64,000 nucleotides of DNA from an uncultured delta proteobacterium (GTDB taxonomy: Bacteria > Desulfobacterota > BSN033 > UBA1163): NCBI GenBank assembly GCA_963711845.1, contig CAVQFR010000014.1, positions 73,644-137,643 of the forward strand, in the 5' to 3' direction. Shown piece by piece: positions 3,727 to 52,892 of this stretch (within the stretch, counting starts at the first letter, position 1; each line of letters starts with the position of its first letter). The translations under genes were made by a program, and so were the position numbers. The notes under the pieces were generated by a model that saw only the letters and a program-made list of their open reading frames with translations, was not told the DNA's origin and did not search any database.

Positions 3727-3815
3727 TGGTGCCTAGGGCCGGACTTGAACCGGCACGGTGGGGGGCCACCGAGGGATTTTAAGTCCCTTGCGTCTACCAA
3801 TTCCGCCACCCAGGC
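3727..3815 (-). tRNA. tRNA-Leu (anticodon UAA), long variable arm, CCA encoded
   Basis: Reverse complement reads GCCTGGGTGGCGGAATTGGTAGACGCAAGGGACTTAAAATCCCTCGG...GGTTCAAGTCCGGCCCTAGGCACCA; 7-bp acceptor stem pairs, anticodon loop CTTAAAA, T-loop GGTTCAAGTCC; closely resembles E. coli leuZ. Confidence 0.9.
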
Positions 3816-3903
3816 AGTCCTATGGGTTAATCGTCACTTCTTGGGATTCTTACTAAGGAATCCATCATTGCCCAGACCATTATCTTCAGAAAATCTCCCC
3901 TAA

Positions 3904-3949
3904 CCCCTCTTTGCCTGTCTAAAGACAGGAAAAGGATACCAAAGAGGGG
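3904..3949. other. nested palindrome (outer CCCCTCTTTG/CAAAGAGGGG enclosing CCTGTCTAAAGACAGG)
   Basis: Read directly; lies between the LVIVD gene 3' end and the tRNA-Leu 5' side. Confidence 0.4.
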
Positions 3950-4100
3950 GATTCCTCTGTCTAACCAATTATGGACTGACTAATAACCAAATTCTCGTTT
4001 AATAGAATTTATAATTCTTAGAAGATTATGTCAATAAAAAATGAAGCTTTATTGAGCAGGTTGATCATTGAAGAGTAAAGGGGACAAGAACGGAAAACTC

Positions 4101-5334
4101 TTACTTCTTATGCCTAAGAATGAAGAGCCCGTGATTCTTGTCCGTGATGTAAATATATCCCCGATTATCGACGATCACGTCTTCTGTCTGGGTGGCCAAT
4201 TCTTTGGGAAGCAGTCCCCTCTTCTTCTTGGGTGAAGCCGGGATGAAATAGGCAATAGGCCTGGGCACGCCCGGGGCAGCTGATGTCGTAAAGCCATAGG
4301 CCTCCACTCTCGTAACAGATATGGATGATGTTATCGACATCCGCAAGACAAGGTTGATGGTGGGGCATGTGGATGTTATGCGGCCCGAACTTTCCTCCGA
4401 GTTCCTGGAAATCTCGAACTCCTAATTCCTCCGGAGGAACCGGGATAGGGAAATTTGCAATTGGTTTGGGTTTCTCCTCATTTGTCATATCCACAACCAA
4501 TGCAAGGTTAAGCGGGTCCCGCTCTTCTTCGAGGATGGCCTCCGTTGTGGCGATCGCCAGTTTCCTCGACGGGATGGGCAAATAGGTGTGAGCTCCCACA
4601 ATGCTTCCAAAATCTCCGATGTCGATGCGGCCGAGTTGGCGAGGATGGGAAAGATCGGAGATGTCCAGGGTGATAAAACCGGCCCGACCATAGGGGAGAT
4701 AAGCTCTCTCTCCTATCACATACGGCGGACCATGGAGTTGATAGAAGCGATCCGCCTTTTCGCCTCCCTCTTCCCATTGTCCTTTAAACCACCACCGTGA
4801 AACCTCTTTGGGGTGGGTCGGATCGCTTATATCCACAGCAACAAAGATGTTTCCTTTATAACCCTTCATGTTGGCCGCAAGATACGCATATTTTCCACCT
4901 GAATAAAAGTTACGGTGGGTTCCAAAGCCTCCGGTTTCAAAAGAGCCCAGTCGCTTGGGATCCGTCGGATTCTTAACATCCCAGATCAGGATGCCTTCAC
5001 CGAAAGGCAGAGAGGGATCGTGTCCCCAGATATCGTTCCGACCCAGGATCCCATCCCCGATTCTCTCCAGAGCGGTGACCATCTTCCCCTGGGCCACCTG
5101 AACTTGTAATGTCCATGTATTGGCCGGACCGGGGATGAATTTGAGAAGCTCGGGTCGAGAGGGACGGGTGATATCCATGATGGTCCAGCCGCGGTGCCAG
5201 AAATGGCCGATATACAAGTACCAGCGGCCCTCCACTTCCTGAATCGCCATCTTGAATCCAGGCCTTTCGTCGAGGTCATGGTATGCGACCGTCTCCATGT
5301 TCTTGCTGATAAAACCCGGACTCTCACTCATCAC
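4101..5334 (-). CDS. LVIVD-repeat beta-propeller protein (apparent frameshift near 3' end)
   Basis: 389-aa ORF with about six repeats of hydrophobic-D-hydrophobic-SDP-x-x-P pattern (ILIWDVKNPTDP, FVAVDISDPTHP, FITLDISDLSHP, LALVVDMTNEEKP, LWLYDIS); final repeat continues in another frame in ORF 4101..4346 (...DVIVDNRGYIYITDKNHGLFIL). Confidence 0.6.
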
Positions 5335-17700: not shown

Positions 17701-17726
17701 CCCCTTTTATTCTCCTAGGCCTTCCT

Positions 17727-17845
17727 GTGGAGCCCCACGGGCAAAGCCCGTGGCACCTGACTAACGCCCGAGAGGGGCGACATCCCGGCCAAAAGTTGGC
17801 GCATTCATCCACGGCCAAAGGCCGTGGCTTTCTGCTGCCGGGGTA
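17727..17845. repeat. dispersed ~120-bp hairpin-rich repeat, copy A
   Basis: gtggagccccacgggcaaagcccgtgg...ggcgcattcatccacggccaaaggccgtgg...ccggggta; about 85-90% identical by eye to 51967..52086. Confidence 0.65.
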
Positions 17846-18174: not shown

Positions 18175-18249
18175 TGGAGGCGGCAATCGGATTTGAACCG
18201 ATGAATAACGGTTTTGCAGACCGTCGCCTTACCACTTGGCTATGCCGCC
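18175..18249 (-). tRNA. tRNA-Cys (anticodon GCA)
   Basis: Reverse complement GGCGGCATAGCCAAGTGGTAAGGCGACGGTCTGCAAAACCGT...ATCGGTTCAAATCCGATTGCCGCCTCCA; acceptor stem pairs perfectly, discriminator U, CCA encoded. Confidence 0.9.
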
Positions 18250-18251
18250 CT

Positions 18252-18326
<75 letters not shown>

Positions 18327-49301: not shown

Positions 49302-49402
49302 TTTCTATCTCTCCATCTTGCCCATGTAGATTTTCTTAACAAAATTCAAAGCTTGGTGTCAAATATTTAGGACATCGTCAATAATGTATTACTAACTTAG
49401 TC

Positions 49403-49431
49403 TTGACTTACTTTATTTTATATGATATACA
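49403..49431 (+). promoter_or_regulatory. candidate sigma70-type promoter (TTGACT-N17-TATACA) for the AbrB/PIN pair
   Basis: Spacing-correct -35/-10 hexamers about 30 bp upstream of the antitoxin start; GGAG SD before ATG 49460. Confidence 0.4.
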
Positions 49432-49459
49432 TTTGTAAAAAGTTTTACTGGAGACTTAA

Positions 49460-49720
49460 ATGGAAACATCAGCAACTATCAAAGGACAGGTGGTCATCCC
49501 GGCAAAGATCAGGCATCGTCTGCGAATTAAGAAGGGCACCAAATTCTATGTCGAAGAGCGAAAAGGGGAAATAATCCTTCGTCCCCTAAACAAGGAATAT
49601 TTTCAAAAGATGAGTGGTGTTCTTAAGGGAGGAGGACTTATCAAGGCATTAGAAGAAACCAGGGCCGACGATCTTAGGCGAGAGGAGGAGAAAATTGGCC
49701 GCCGCAAAGGTTCTCGATAG
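49460..49720 (+). CDS. AbrB/MazE/SpoVT-family antitoxin
   Basis: N-terminal swapped-hairpin motif TIKGQVVIPAKIRHRLRIKKGTKF…GEIILRP. Confidence 0.7.
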   Translation: METSATIKGQVVIPAKIRHRLRIKKGTKFYVEERKGEIILRPLNKEYFQKMSGVLKGGGLIKALEETRADDLRREEEKIGRRKGSR

Positions 49721-50096
49721 TTGGGCCCTTCTCTGCTACCTTGAGCAAGAACCCGGTTATGAGAAGATAATCGACCTCTTCGACAAAGCTGTTGAGTCCT
49801 CCAAGCCTCTCTTAATGTGCATCGTGAACTGGGGAGAGGTTTATTACCAGGTGATGAGGCGGTTTGGAGATCAAAAAGCACAAGAGATTGAGCAGCTCAT
49901 TCAGACCCTACCGATCACACTGATTGAAGCCAATAAAGAAATTACGCGGGAGGCGGCGCGCATAAAAGCCACAAAACGGATGGCCTATGCGGATTGTTTT
50001 GCCGTCGCCCTCGCCCGCCTAAAAAAAGCAGAACTTTATACAGGGGATAATGAGTTCAAAGCCGTGGAGAAAGAAACAAAGATTGTTTGGCTTTAG
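49695..50096 (+). CDS. PIN-domain toxin (VapC-like)
   Basis: PIN acidic residues in VLDSWALL…, AYADCFAVALA, TGDNEF; TTG start overlapping antitoxin 3' end. Confidence 0.7.
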   Translation: MAAAKVLDSWALLCYLEQEPGYEKIIDLFDKAVESSKPLLMCIVNWGEVYYQVMRRFGDQKAQEIEQLIQTLPITLIEANKEITREAARIKATKRMAYADCFAVALARLKKAELYTGDNEFKAVEKETKIVWL

Positions 50097-50404
50097 CGGT
50101 TAAAGTTAGTGTTTGACCTTATAGACACTATAACATTTAGCGTTGATTTCTTCCTGAACTCTTCAAATCCGTACGGACCATATTCATCCAATGTTTCAGG
50201 TGCAAATCACTAAGGCCGTGACCGAACTTCTGATCTCGAATTTCTGATAGGGGAAAATCGGCAATAATCGGTAATAAATGTGACATTTTCCCCTTGACTC
50301 TCATTTCGATTAAGAGTACTTTCAAGTCGTCGTTTCCTGCTGGCCCTTGATTAGACTCAAAACGTCACCCATGACCATTTTGATTGAGGGAAGGAGTTAT
50401 ATAA

Positions 50405-50623
50405 ATGGGCTATGGCAATGAGGTTGACAAAGAAAGAAACTGGATGGCATTAGAGCGGATAGGATTTCATCTGGATGAGGCTATGCGGTTTTGTAAGCAA
50501 CTGGACCTTTCCGGACTCGGCCCGTTAGAGCAAAGAGAATGGGAAACCAGAATGAAGGCCTGCAAAGATGCTATTGAATTTACCAACGAATCAGCCCGGC
50601 AATTGGTTAAGATTCTTGTGTAA
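50405..50623 (+). CDS. hypothetical small protein
   Basis: 72-aa ORF with strong SD (GGAAGGAG) 9 nt upstream of ATG. Confidence 0.45.
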   Translation: MGYGNEVDKERNWMALERIGFHLDEAMRFCKQLDLSGLGPLEQREWETRMKACKDAIEFTNESARQLVKILV

Positions 50624-50778
50624 TTTCTATTTCCCCTAAGCCCCCTTGCCTGTTTTAGACTTCTCCATTCCTTCCTGAAACATTCTCTTCCCCAATTTGT
50701 GAAATGGGTGTATATTACAACTGCACATAGTGGGCGCTATCGATCTCAACGATAACAGAGACACTGCCATTCAGTTAT

Positions 50779-51384
50779 TTGCGCTCGTCAATTCAATTGA
50801 TGTCGGATAAGATGGGAACGAGTCCGGGTATGAGTGAGTCACAAAGCAAGCTGCCTGAGGACGTCGGTATTAGCGTCGAAAGAATGATTCGCTTCTGTTA
50901 CCTTGCGGAGATGCAGTTCGAATATGCCTCCGGCGACACAAAGACCCTGCCCCTTCACTTGACCCGATTTGGCACATTGCTGCTTGAGACTGCCAGCTTT
51001 CTGTACTCCCTCTTCGAAGAGAGACGCGACTCGATCAACTTATTGGATGTCTGGCGGGGCTTTGACCATCCTTTTAGCGAGGAACTTCATGACTGTGTGA
51101 GGAAATTGGATCCATTCAAAAAAGAGCTGCGGCAAGTACGAAATCGCATCGGTTTCCATGGAAGCCTCAATCGAAATCGTGAACGCTCCGGACTCGGCAT
51201 ATTTGATGTTGATAGTTTACGGGTGCATGACTTTGCCCGCCTCATCGGGGAAATGCGGGAACTGTTTCTGCATATGATCGAATGGTATATAAAGAGAATG
51301 GACGAGTCCGCGCGGCCCGATGAGATGTGGAAGGAGTTCGTTGCTGAGCTGAAGGGCCGCTCACGAATCCGGAAGTCATCATGA
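50779..51384 (+). CDS. hypothetical protein (predicted all-helical)
   Basis: About 195-201-aa ORF; start ambiguous (TTG 50779, ATG 50800 or 50812); no recognisable motif. Confidence 0.45.
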   Translation: MRSSIQLMSDKMGTSPGMSESQSKLPEDVGISVERMIRFCYLAEMQFEYASGDTKTLPLHLTRFGTLLLETASFLYSLFEERRDSINLLDVWRGFDHPFSEELHDCVRKLDPFKKELRQVRNRIGFHGSLNRNRERSGLGIFDVDSLRVHDFARLIGEMRELFLHMIEWYIKRMDESARPDEMWKEFVAELKGRSRIRKSS

Positions 51385-51450
51385 CGCTGCCCAATAACGC
51401 GTCTTACCCAACATCCGCGTCAACCGGATCGCCCAAACCGGATAAGATAA

Positions 51451-51708
51451 ATGACCATTCTCTTAGTGTTCTATGTAATCGGTGGCGTAATTGGGGTTTT
51501 GATCAATCTACGCTTTTTCTTGCCAGTGGCATATTTTGATGTGAGGAATGCCTTTGGATTGATTGGGACATTGCAAACCATTGGCTATCAGTTGATACGA
51601 GTCTTAATATTGAGCTGTGTTGCTTTCTTTCTTTCGTGGATTTCTGTTGGCTATTTAGTCATTCACTACGAAAACTTCAAACGTGACCTCGAAAGAATGA
51701 AATTGTAA
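51451..51708 (+). CDS. hypothetical small membrane protein (two predicted TM helices)
   Basis: 85-aa ORF MTILLVFYVIGGVIGVLINL…LIRVLILSCVAFFLSWISVGYLVI; lower GC than core genes. Confidence 0.45.
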   Translation: MTILLVFYVIGGVIGVLINLRFFLPVAYFDVRNAFGLIGTLQTIGYQLIRVLILSCVAFFLSWISVGYLVIHYENFKRDLERMKL

Positions 51709-51966
51709 TCTCTTTCTAACGGAAATCATCAGTCGTTAATGCAGATCGATCCTCGCTCTTTGTAGGTGAAGCGGTTGTCCTGAAAGTCTTTGTCAATTCA
51801 AGTCTTAAGTTTTATAAAGTAAACCGCGTTAGAAAGGGCAGAGCTTTGACACCGCCCTCAATAAGGAGCTGATACTTTCTATTCCACCATCCCCAGCATA
51901 AATGCTGGGGCTTTCTAACGGGGTAAAGCTCTCTGCCCACAGAGTGGGGCATTCTTCATCATTTTC

Positions 51967-52086
51967 GTGGAGCCCCACGGGCATAGCCCGTGGTACCCTA
52001 CTTCACGCCTCAGCGGGGCGACATCCCGGCCAAACGCTGGCGCATTCATCCACGGGCAAAGCCCGTAGCCTTCTGCTGTCGGGGTA
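51967..52086. repeat. dispersed ~120-bp hairpin-rich repeat, copy B
   Basis: gtggagccccacgggcatagcccgtgg…ggcgcattcatccacgggcaaagcccgtag…tcggggta; partial extra copy of the 3' part immediately upstream (about 51905..51960). Confidence 0.65.
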
Positions 52087-52187
52087 AAAGATCTGGTTCA
52101 AAAAATAGGGAGGCTAAAACCCCCATGCCCTCGGGGGTCAGGTGAAAATGGTTCAGATCAATGACGATATCTCACTAAATTTATTAC

Positions 52188-52595
52188 TCATGTTCTTTTG
52201 CTTTTTGATATCTCCCAAAATTCTCTTGGAGTTATGATTGGGACTGAATGGAACTTCTTCAGCACAAGAAGATCCTTATCTCCAGTAATGATGTAATCGG
52301 GTTTGGCTACTTCAGAAAGACCAAGAATTTTGACATCATCAATATCTCTGCAGGCGTCTTTATCTAACCTTTTATGGTCGCTGAATGTACAAAATTCCTT
52401 CAAATATTCAGTGATCATGAGAACCTTATCCTTAGGCATCTTCATTTTTTTCTGTAAATTCCTTTGAACCTCAGATAGGATGTGTTCGCTGATAATGATT
52501 TCATGCTTTTCCAGGCAGAGTTCAAAAAGGGCGTGGGCCAGCCCTCGCCCTGCAAAGGCCGCTAAAATAACATTTGTATCGAGAATTACTCTCAT
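52188..52595 (-). CDS. PIN-domain toxin (VapC-like)
   Basis: MRVILDTNVILAAF…DIDDVKIL…ITGDKDL; 4-bp overlap with upstream antitoxin. Confidence 0.75.
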   Translation of the reverse strand: MRVILDTNVILAAFAGRGLAHALFELCLEKHEIIISEHILSEVQRNLQKKMKMPKDKVLMITEYLKEFCTFSDHKRLDKDACRDIDDVKILGLSEVAKPDYIITGDKDLLVLKKFHSVPIITPREFWEISKSKRT

Positions 52596-52810
52596 GATAC
52601 TTCTTTATAGACATCCTCGTCTGTAAGGATGCCCTGGGCCTCTGCAAAAGGGAGAACCATATTTCGAAGTCTACGAAACCGGTAGATGGCTATATACCTC
52701 TTCAACGATTCTCTAACGAGATCGCTAATGGGTTTCCCCTCTGCCTTACTGATCTCCTGTAATCCCTCTCTTAAATCATCAGGAATTCTGATGGTCAGGG
52801 TCTGATTCAT
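52592..52810 (-). CDS. ribbon-helix-helix (CopG-like) antitoxin
   Basis: MNQTLTIRIPDDLREGLQEISKAEGKPISDLVRESLKRYI; ORF track extends upstream into glyS 3' end, start taken at internal Met. Confidence 0.65.
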   Translation of the reverse strand: MNQTLTIRIPDDLREGLQEISKAEGKPISDLVRESLKRYIAIYRFRRLRNMVLPFAEAQGILTDEDVYKEVS

Positions 52811-52892
52811 ATTCACCCTCCTTTGTAATACAACGTAACACAGACGACGAGATTTGTCAATTCTATTAAAGTTTTCAGACAAAAGGCGGTAA

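Follow-up and report, generated by a model that had tools for sequence, protein, structure and literature searches.

RNases of the HEPN superfamily are a class typical of toxins and abortive-infection effectors. The HEPN signature is Rx4-6H, with a polar residue (N, D or H) after the arginine, set near a helix end or loop (PMC3710099). Among the closest described families to the one treated here is Vpc_cass2 (PDB 3JRT), a HEPN family found on integron cassettes (Anantharaman et al. 2013, PMC3710099; Sureshan et al. 2013, PMC3548836), and in Vibrio cholerae a single-gene HEPN-like cassette of the chromosomal integron, Esos, confers phage defence (Darracq et al. 2024, bioRxiv 10.1101/2024.07.02.601686). 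The attC sites of cassettes have boxes with the consensus RYYYAAC (R'') and GTTRRRY (R') (PMC5027507). The present study concerns three consecutive open reading frames (ORF1, ORF2 and ORF3) in a 64-kb stretch, hereafter the window, of contig CAVQFR010000014.1 from an uncultured delta proteobacterium. A preliminary description had singled them out as the best candidate for an undescribed multi-gene system, with toxin-antitoxin (TA) pairs and a dispersed repeat around it. Comparison with other genomes indicates that the segment is probably a mosaic of three single-gene units with separate histories in a TA-rich islet, not a system, and that ORF2 very likely represents an unclassified family of the HEPN superfamily.

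That the three are real genes is indicated by homologues in other genomes and by purifying selection (dN/dS, the ratio of nonsynonymous to synonymous change, of 0.14–0.33 against homologues; 0.20–0.33 for ORF1). Their common direction, positions and sizes proved to be as first described (72, 201 and 85 aa, the second as called by the ORF finder at 50779–51384), as did the strong Shine-Dalgarno sequence of ORF1 (GAAGGAG, 50390–50396) and, from hydropathy, the soluble nature of ORF1 and the two transmembrane (TM) segments of ORF3. The proposed association of the three did not survive comparison. Homologues were searched for each other's company by tblastn with all three proteins, in 82 loci carrying an ORF1 homologue at 67–100% identity (at least 450 nt of downstream sequence in 65 of them, at least 800 nt in 51), 11 distinct contexts of ORF2 homologues, one of these a distant relative, and 3 distinct contexts of ORF3 homologues. 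Neither ORF2 nor ORF3 was present in any of the 82 ORF1 loci, neither ORF1 nor ORF3 in any of the 11 ORF2 contexts, and neither ORF1 nor ORF2 in any of the 3 ORF3 contexts; the trio never recurs together. The sole locus shared by any two is a 1.1-kb contig from another sample, which has an ORF2-ORF3 pair with an identical ORF3 and is probably from the same population. Since the homologues show no conserved co-occurrence, a three-gene module is rejected, and the trio consists of independently inherited, unrelated genes lying side by side in an ordinary conflict-gene islet. Searches of viral contigs gave no homologue for any of the genes, and plasmids yielded none for ORF1 or ORF2.

The DNA itself is built in blocks. 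The first (50146/50147 to 50680/50728) is 97–99.6% identical to loci L016, L017, L021 and L022 (L numbers denote loci used for comparison), the second (50801–51428) is 87% identical to L018–L020 and 74.5% identical to L001–L003, and the third (51423–51770) is 92% identical to L013. The flanks of each block are unrelated, so that homology to other genomes breaks between genes: L021 and L022 match the window at 99.6% over ORF1 and diverge completely 57 nt past its stop codon, and the match to L001 and L018 extends only as far as 51428, at the start of the ORF3 block. These data also bear on whether ORF1, a small acidic helical protein, might be the antitoxin of ORF2 in a type II-like pair. This is most unlikely, as an ORF2 relative occurs in 0 of 82 ORF1 loci and ORF1 in 0 of 11 ORF2 contexts, L021 and L022 part from the window right after ORF1, and in other loci ORF1 is followed by a variety of genes (histidine kinases, an excisionase-like helix-turn-helix (HTH) protein, a P-loop kinase, HSDR_N_2).

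ORF2 has 201 aa when read from the first TTG (50779), but its homologues mostly have 184 aa and begin MSE or MND, so the ATG at 50830 is the likely start. The protein is soluble according to hydropathy. Its family is small, a profile search of 1.8 billion representatives giving only 62 relatives. At 90% identity it makes up about 140 protein clusters and at 50% identity 62 representatives; every source consulted leaves its members without a name or calls them 'hypothetical protein'. Among 24 aligned close homologues, invariant positions are concentrated in the stretch VRNRxGFHGSxxR; when 28 sequences down to 20% identity are aligned, the sole invariants are R121, G125 and H127, with N, H or D following the arginine. 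ORF2 thus has the HEPN motif, Rx4-6H with a polar residue after the arginine. In its AlphaFold2 (AF2) model (pLDDT, the predicted local distance difference test score, 80) there are helices at residues 27–51, 63–77, 100–125 and 147–172, and residues 121–127 occupy the C-terminal end of the helix 100–125 and the start of the next loop, the placement described for HEPN domains in PMC3710099. One remote member of the family, P0312, matches HEPN_AbiU2 over the motif region (E 6.6e-4), below the gathering threshold (19.6 vs 26.8 bits) and in 1 of 28 members.

On this motif and predicted fold we consider membership of the HEPN superfamily very likely. The earlier remark that no family could be recognised for the three proteins holds for all of them at the level of sequence profiles (ORF1, ORF2 and ORF3 have no matches in Pfam, NCBIfam, PADLOC or PHROGs), but at the level of structure and motif it no longer holds for ORF2. 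RNase activity and dimerisation would follow by analogy with the superfamily: a dimer would juxtapose two R-N-x4-H motifs and cleave RNA without a metal. The opinion that the setting is one of defence or abortive infection stands in so far as the islet is a small conflict-gene islet and ORF2 a predicted HEPN RNase, and falls as regards the trio as a system. Because the Esos cassette is the best functional precedent, a role for ORF2 as a stand-alone toxin or abortive-infection effector is proposed, although we regard the chances of it as evenly balanced. No NTP_transf-type (MNT) gene lies beside ORF2 in the window or beside its homologues in the contexts fetched.

Other possible HEPN domains were seen near ORF2 homologues and, like the match of P0312, are hints in favour of the HEPN assignment. 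The homologue of L004 (5001–6035; P0070, 344 aa) carries an additional, fused domain with the motif RNNLFH, and in L001–L003 (4244–4888; 779–1423 in L003) an unannotated 214-aa neighbour of the homologue has an RNSYCH motif and lies beside a type III CRISPR RAMP gene. Both may be further unclassified HEPN domains. In L104 (3397–4621) a distant relative of ORF2, of 206 aa and with about 32% identity across the motif region, is encoded in a cluster of three tightly overlapping genes, the other two products being proteins of 86 and 114 aa. The cluster is inserted between the two glycine-cleavage P-protein genes, and a serine recombinase lies nearby; this distant branch may have partners that are absent from the Nitrospirota branch.

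The ORF2 family appears to spread as integron gene cassettes. Directly 3' of the stop codon of ORF2 homologues there is CTGCCCAAC or a near variant (RYYYAAC, R'' box) in 7 of 10 distinct contexts, and GTTGGGC (GTTRRRY, R' box) lies upstream of several homologues, about 25–30 nt before the start codon. Complete sites whose arms pair occur in L008 (1824–1915), L011 (5879–5971 and 6563–6622), L005 (5575–5646) and L001 (5578–5625), those of L001 being weaker than those of L005, L008 and L011. Folds of the bottom strand as single-stranded DNA (ssDNA) are far better than those of shuffled sequences (z -4.8 for L005, z -2.9 for L008). Sites were scored not with IntegronFinder but with a custom-written attC scorer. 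At the cut-off applied, this scorer has a false-positive rate of about 1.7 per 100 kb, and at this rate the three sites abutting ORF2 homologues are not due to chance. The neighbours of the homologues include transposases, a group II intron reverse transcriptase, TA genes and CRISPR; being cassette-borne would account for the way ORF2 stands alone beside ever-changing neighbours. No integron integrase was detected in the window (a weak test), and none is annotated within the flanks fetched around the homologues.

A small ORF overlapping the stop codon of ORF2 homologues (ATGA), with the peptide 'LPNLTVDRT', was also considered as a gene, and turned out to be the R''/L'' region of attC read as protein. 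Such an overlapping ORF of 23–37 aa is called in L006 (5552–5653; a 33-aa gene) and has equivalents in L005, L008, L009 and L001, and is likely to be a recurrent annotation artefact in cassette arrays.

The copy of ORF2 in the window is probably a fossil cassette and not part of a live array. After its stop codon only the R'' box and a short stub remain; there is no GTTRRRY (R') partner and the fold is not significant (z -1.35). It could be asked whether the islet is nevertheless a functional cassette array or a CALIN (cluster of attC sites lacking an integrase), with the three genes and the TA pairs all being current cassettes. TA cassettes are common in chromosomal integrons, the ORF2 homologues are cassette-borne, the block-wise mosaic resembles cassette shuffling, and attC-like sites occur in some ORF1 loci (L049, L081, L098). 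This is still very unlikely: strict and tolerant pattern scans, the calibrated scorer and ssDNA folding gave no attC in the 64 kb, the islet has no RYYYAAC...GTTRRRY pair, its intergenic segments fold no better than shuffles, no tyrosine recombinase like that of L016 was found among the window ORFs by phmmer (a weak test), and ORF1 differs from typical cassettes in having a promoter of its own and a long 5' region.

Several observations weigh against the interpretation of the segment as a mosaic with a cassette-derived HEPN gene. The gap between ORF2 and ORF3 is only 66 nt, with no predicted terminator in it, and the same pair is present in the sample that is probably of the same population, so ORF2 and ORF3 may be co-transcribed in this strain. 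The contigs with ORF2 or ORF3 homologues are mostly short, and the distinct contexts modest in number (11 and 3). A Foldseek search with the ORF2 model gave no significant match, and profile searches of Pfam, NCBIfam, PADLOC and PDB gave no link to solved or curated HEPN proteins. No antitoxin or regulator was identified for ORF2, which is awkward for a constitutively active toxin. Lastly, there is no intact attC at the window copy and the homologues nearest to it (L018, L001) have only short or degenerate sites, so that its cassette origin is argued from more distant homologues.

Two alternatives draw on these points. The trio might have come together recently, in this strain alone, as an operon whose products act jointly (a HEPN effector, say, with a small regulator and a partner in the membrane), and would then be a true defence system of very recent origin. 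The genes run in one direction, separated by short gaps that contain no terminator-like site, the ORF2-ORF3 adjacency is repeated on a second contig with an identical ORF3, and the setting is rich in TA genes. Against this, no co-occurrence was found elsewhere, each gene comes with a separate block of flanking DNA, ORF1 is served by a conserved promoter of its own and ORF2 is preceded by a promoter-like element, and the second contig, being probably of the same population, is not independent support; a young operon is accordingly rated as improbable. Alternatively, ORF2 could be a generic helical bundle and not a HEPN RNase, the conserved R/H motif serving some other purpose such as ligand or protein binding. 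The lack of Foldseek and profile matches would suit this reading, while the motif and its position in the model favour a HEPN domain, and we regard the generic bundle as unlikely, though less so than the young operon. The mosaic of single genes, with ORF2 as a HEPN protein, remains the preferred interpretation. It removes a false lead, in that adjacency within a TA-rich islet mimicked a three-gene defence system and comparative context resolved it into three unrelated passengers. It also identifies the members of the ORF2 family as probable HEPN RNases, spread by way of integron cassettes.

The edges of the ORF1 block carry a short intergenic motif. The homology of the window to L021 and L022 ends exactly after TTCCTTCCTGAAA, and a degenerate copy, TTTCTTCCTGAAC, lies at the other edge (Table 1). 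The motif is strand-specific: allowing at most one mismatch, 407 kb of sequence contained 27 matches on the strand of the ORF1 or ORF2 homologue and 0 on the other, with 0.24 expected. It was found in L016–L022, L025, L026, L028, L032, L039, L094 and other loci, and L018 has three copies, each 90–255 nt upstream of a + strand gene. It was considered as coding sequence and discarded, there being no consistent reading frame; it could be a regulatory site or a recombination hotspot. A wider and distinctly tentative proposal, which we hold to be rather unlikely, is that the ORF2 family is an autonomous single-protein HEPN anti-phage or abortive-infection effector of the Esos type, borne on integron cassettes in Nitrospirota-type environmental bacteria and kept inactive by a trigger rather than an antitoxin, and that, separately, TTCCTTCCTGAAA is recombination or regulatory punctuation promoting the shuffling of single genes.

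Table 1. Features of the islet and its borders (positions are those of the window)
Feature	Position	Strand	Remarks
AbrB/MazE-type antitoxin, upstream TA pair	49460..49720	+	Pfam MazE_antitoxin, E 3.4e-8
PIN-domain toxin (VapC-like), upstream TA pair	49695..50096	+	Pfam PIN, E 2.3e-14
62-aa ORF, doubtful gene	50137..50325	-	5' half overlaps ORF1 promoter; seen in four near-identical loci only
Degenerate copy TTTCTTCCTGAAC of TTCCTTCCTGAAA	50147-50159		Left edge of ORF1 DNA block
ORF1 promoter	50294..50322	+	TTGACT, 17-nt spacer, TACTTT; conserved in 20 loci at 75-90% DNA identity
ORF1, 72-aa two-helix hairpin protein	50405..50623	+	Widespread conserved family
Strand-specific intergenic motif TTCCTTCCTGAAA	50668..50680	+	Right edge of ORF1 DNA block
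Promoter-like element gaaatgggTGTATATTAC upstream of ORF2 (putative)	50701..50720	+	Common to L016/L017/L039, there preceding a different gene (HSDR_N_2 in L016/L017)
ORF2, HEPN-domain protein, predicted metal-independent RNase	50830..51384	+	Alternative upstream starts 50779, 50812
Codons of predicted catalytic motif R121-N-R-I-G-F-H127	51139..51159	+	CGA AAT CGC ATC GGT TTC CAT; read from the sequence
Truncated attC remnant after ORF2	51385..51428	+	R'' box ACCCAAC 51406-51412 and ~16 further bases
ORF3, 85-aa two-TM membrane protein	51451..51708	+	GGxxG motif in TM1; 18 homologues; hydropathy
Dispersed structured repeat, copy B	51967..52087	.	Further copies 17726-17845 and L027 2026-2144
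PIN-domain toxin, downstream TA pair	52188..52595	-	Pfam PIN_3, E 1.7e-11; cluster members named 'putative PIN family toxin'
Ribbon-helix-helix (CopG) antitoxin, downstream TA pair	52592..52810	-	Pfam RHH_1, E 3.4e-7

ORF1 belongs to a family of 284 clusters (E<=0.01), also unnamed or labelled 'hypothetical protein', that is found in 139 metagenome stretches, the exact ORF1 sequence being present on 17 contigs. Its AF2 model (pLDDT 92) has helices at residues 2–32 and 40–71, the invariant residues are H22, C30 and C53, and fold searches gave nothing informative. With its own sigma-70-type promoter, leader and strong Shine-Dalgarno sequence, ORF1 would form a self-contained transcription unit encoding a helical hairpin of 68–72 aa. 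The promoter spacer contains a partial palindrome (CTCTxAT...ATxAGAG), less regular in some loci, which looks like an operator and suggests control by a repressor or autoregulation. The leader was also considered as a riboswitch or structured RNA and rejected (RNAalifold -0.39 kcal/mol, zero covariation), leaving a promoter and a plain leader. As for function, we can only guess, with low confidence, at a small regulatory or adaptor protein.

The neighbours of ORF1 across the 82 loci are varied, no neighbour cluster occurring in more than 16. The commonest are histidine-kinase or PAS-sensor genes (two neighbour clusters, in 16 and 13 of the 82 loci, L016–L100), which may be no more than the background of these kinase-rich genomes. 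The model of ORF1 resembles a dimerisation and histidine phosphotransfer (DHp)-like helical hairpin with an invariant histidine (FHLDEA). In L016 a gene for a XerA/XerC-like tyrosine recombinase (3787–4626) is found upstream of the ORF1 block, about 115 nt from the left end, the recombinase scoring far below the IntI cut-off (57 vs 265 bits), and in L017 (2848–3273) a C-terminal fragment of the recombinase alone remains, further upstream of the block. In both loci the gene after ORF1 is an HSDR_N_2 (PD-(D/E)xK-like) gene, and ahead of it stands the promoter-like element found before ORF2 in the window.

ORF3 has hydrophobic segments at about residues 1–28 and 43–72, and its invariant residues are G11, G12, G15, R21, D30 and W63. 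It would be a small two-TM protein that elsewhere lies downstream of unrelated genes; its upstream neighbour differs among L013, L014 and L106.

The preliminary description noted that two of the genes share the 10-mer CGGATAAGAT (cGGATAAGAT) just before the start codon. The two copies, at 50804 and 51439, are indeed the only ones in the window, but the first lies 16 nt 5' of the likely ORF2 start and is thus not directly before it, and neither in L018, before the ORF2 homologue, nor in L014, before that of ORF3, is the motif conserved. The region holds seven further repeated 10- to 12-mers (13 identical 10-mer pairs observed vs about 3 expected). As one of eight such repeats, unconserved before homologues and at this distance from the ORF2 start, CGGATAAGAT is a weak signal and is treated as probably due to chance.

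Between ORF3 and the dispersed repeat, CTTTCTAACGG occurs as a direct repeat (51712–51722 and 51911–51921) with an inverted copy (51826–51836). It was considered as an attC site, its core being like the R boxes (tTCTAAC / GTTAGAa), and rejected, as the arms are unpaired (z -0.5 and -1.1). The dispersed repeat reported downstream of ORF3 was confirmed, and its copies of about 125 nt contain two CCACGGNC-AAA-GNCCGTGG hairpins (consensus fold -49 kcal/mol, one compensatory pair). It matches no Rfam family at threshold (the best is HgcC-like, 21 vs 50 bits, which is the single sub-threshold Rfam match in the islet) and a search of viral contigs gave no copy of it; a small RNA is one possibility, an element like a repetitive extragenic palindrome (REP) or miniature inverted-repeat transposable element (MITE) another. 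At the gathering threshold the Rfam matches of the window are three tRNAs (3730–3815, 18178–18326), with none in the islet.

The islet as a whole (49.4–52.9 kb, about 3.5 kb) is a variable region between core genes, with a PIN TA pair at each side; both pairs had been correctly assigned before, and Pfam places them as in Table 1. One flank carries two PEP-utilising enzymes, an acyl-ACP thioesterase and an acyl-CoA synthetase, the other glyS, glyQ, recO, lolA and ftsK. The 62-aa minus-strand ORF has zero matches in Pfam, NCBIfam, PADLOC, PHROGs and PDB; it was considered as a HepT/DUF86 remnant (IRDQKFGHG...), an idea that was dropped since no HMM (hidden Markov model) library or PDB entry supports it. 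The three genes had been described as lying in visibly lower-GC DNA. Their segment (50100–52190) does have a G+C fraction of 0.460 vs 0.490 for the window, but this is merely the 12.5th percentile of equal-sized windows, and ORF2 stands at 0.505 (ORF3 at 0.384). The low G+C of the three-gene segment is a modest signal, and only the islet as a whole, including both TA pairs (49400–52890; 0.448, 0.9th percentile), is extreme.

In relation to known systems, ORF2 and its homologues differ from the HepT (DUF86) or HEPN-MNT type II/VII toxins (5YEP, 7AE2, 8XDJ) in having no adjoining MNT nucleotidyltransferase, in the spacing between the arginine and the histidine (5 residues in ORF2, 4 in HepT) and in the absence of a Pfam HepT match. 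The AbiU2 HEPN domain (Pfam PF18734), an abortive-infection effector, is like the ORF2 family a stand-alone defence-type HEPN, but the two are connected by the sub-threshold match of P0312 alone, and ORF2 of the window has no match. From Vpc_cass2, ORF2 is separated by an identity of 7% in structural alignment, with no profile match, and by an extra C-terminal helix (180–199) and an N-terminal tail; ORF2 comes from Nitrospirota/Binatia-type metagenomes, whereas the Vpc_cass2 family is from Vibrio and other Gammaproteobacteria. Either a common cassette-borne ancestor or convergence would account for the likeness of the two. As in integron cassettes generally, ORF2 homologues (L005, L008, L011) are bounded by imperfect palindromes of 60–93 nt that start with RYYYAAC and end with GTTRRRY, while ORF2 of the window has kept the R'' box and about 16 nt of attC only. 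The family is a further indication that environmental integrons accumulate stocks of toxin and defence effectors encoded by single genes. Its nearest counterpart in this respect is Esos, to which it is likened by architecture and not by sequence or structure: in both, one small HEPN-like protein is carried on a cassette with no recognisable partner.

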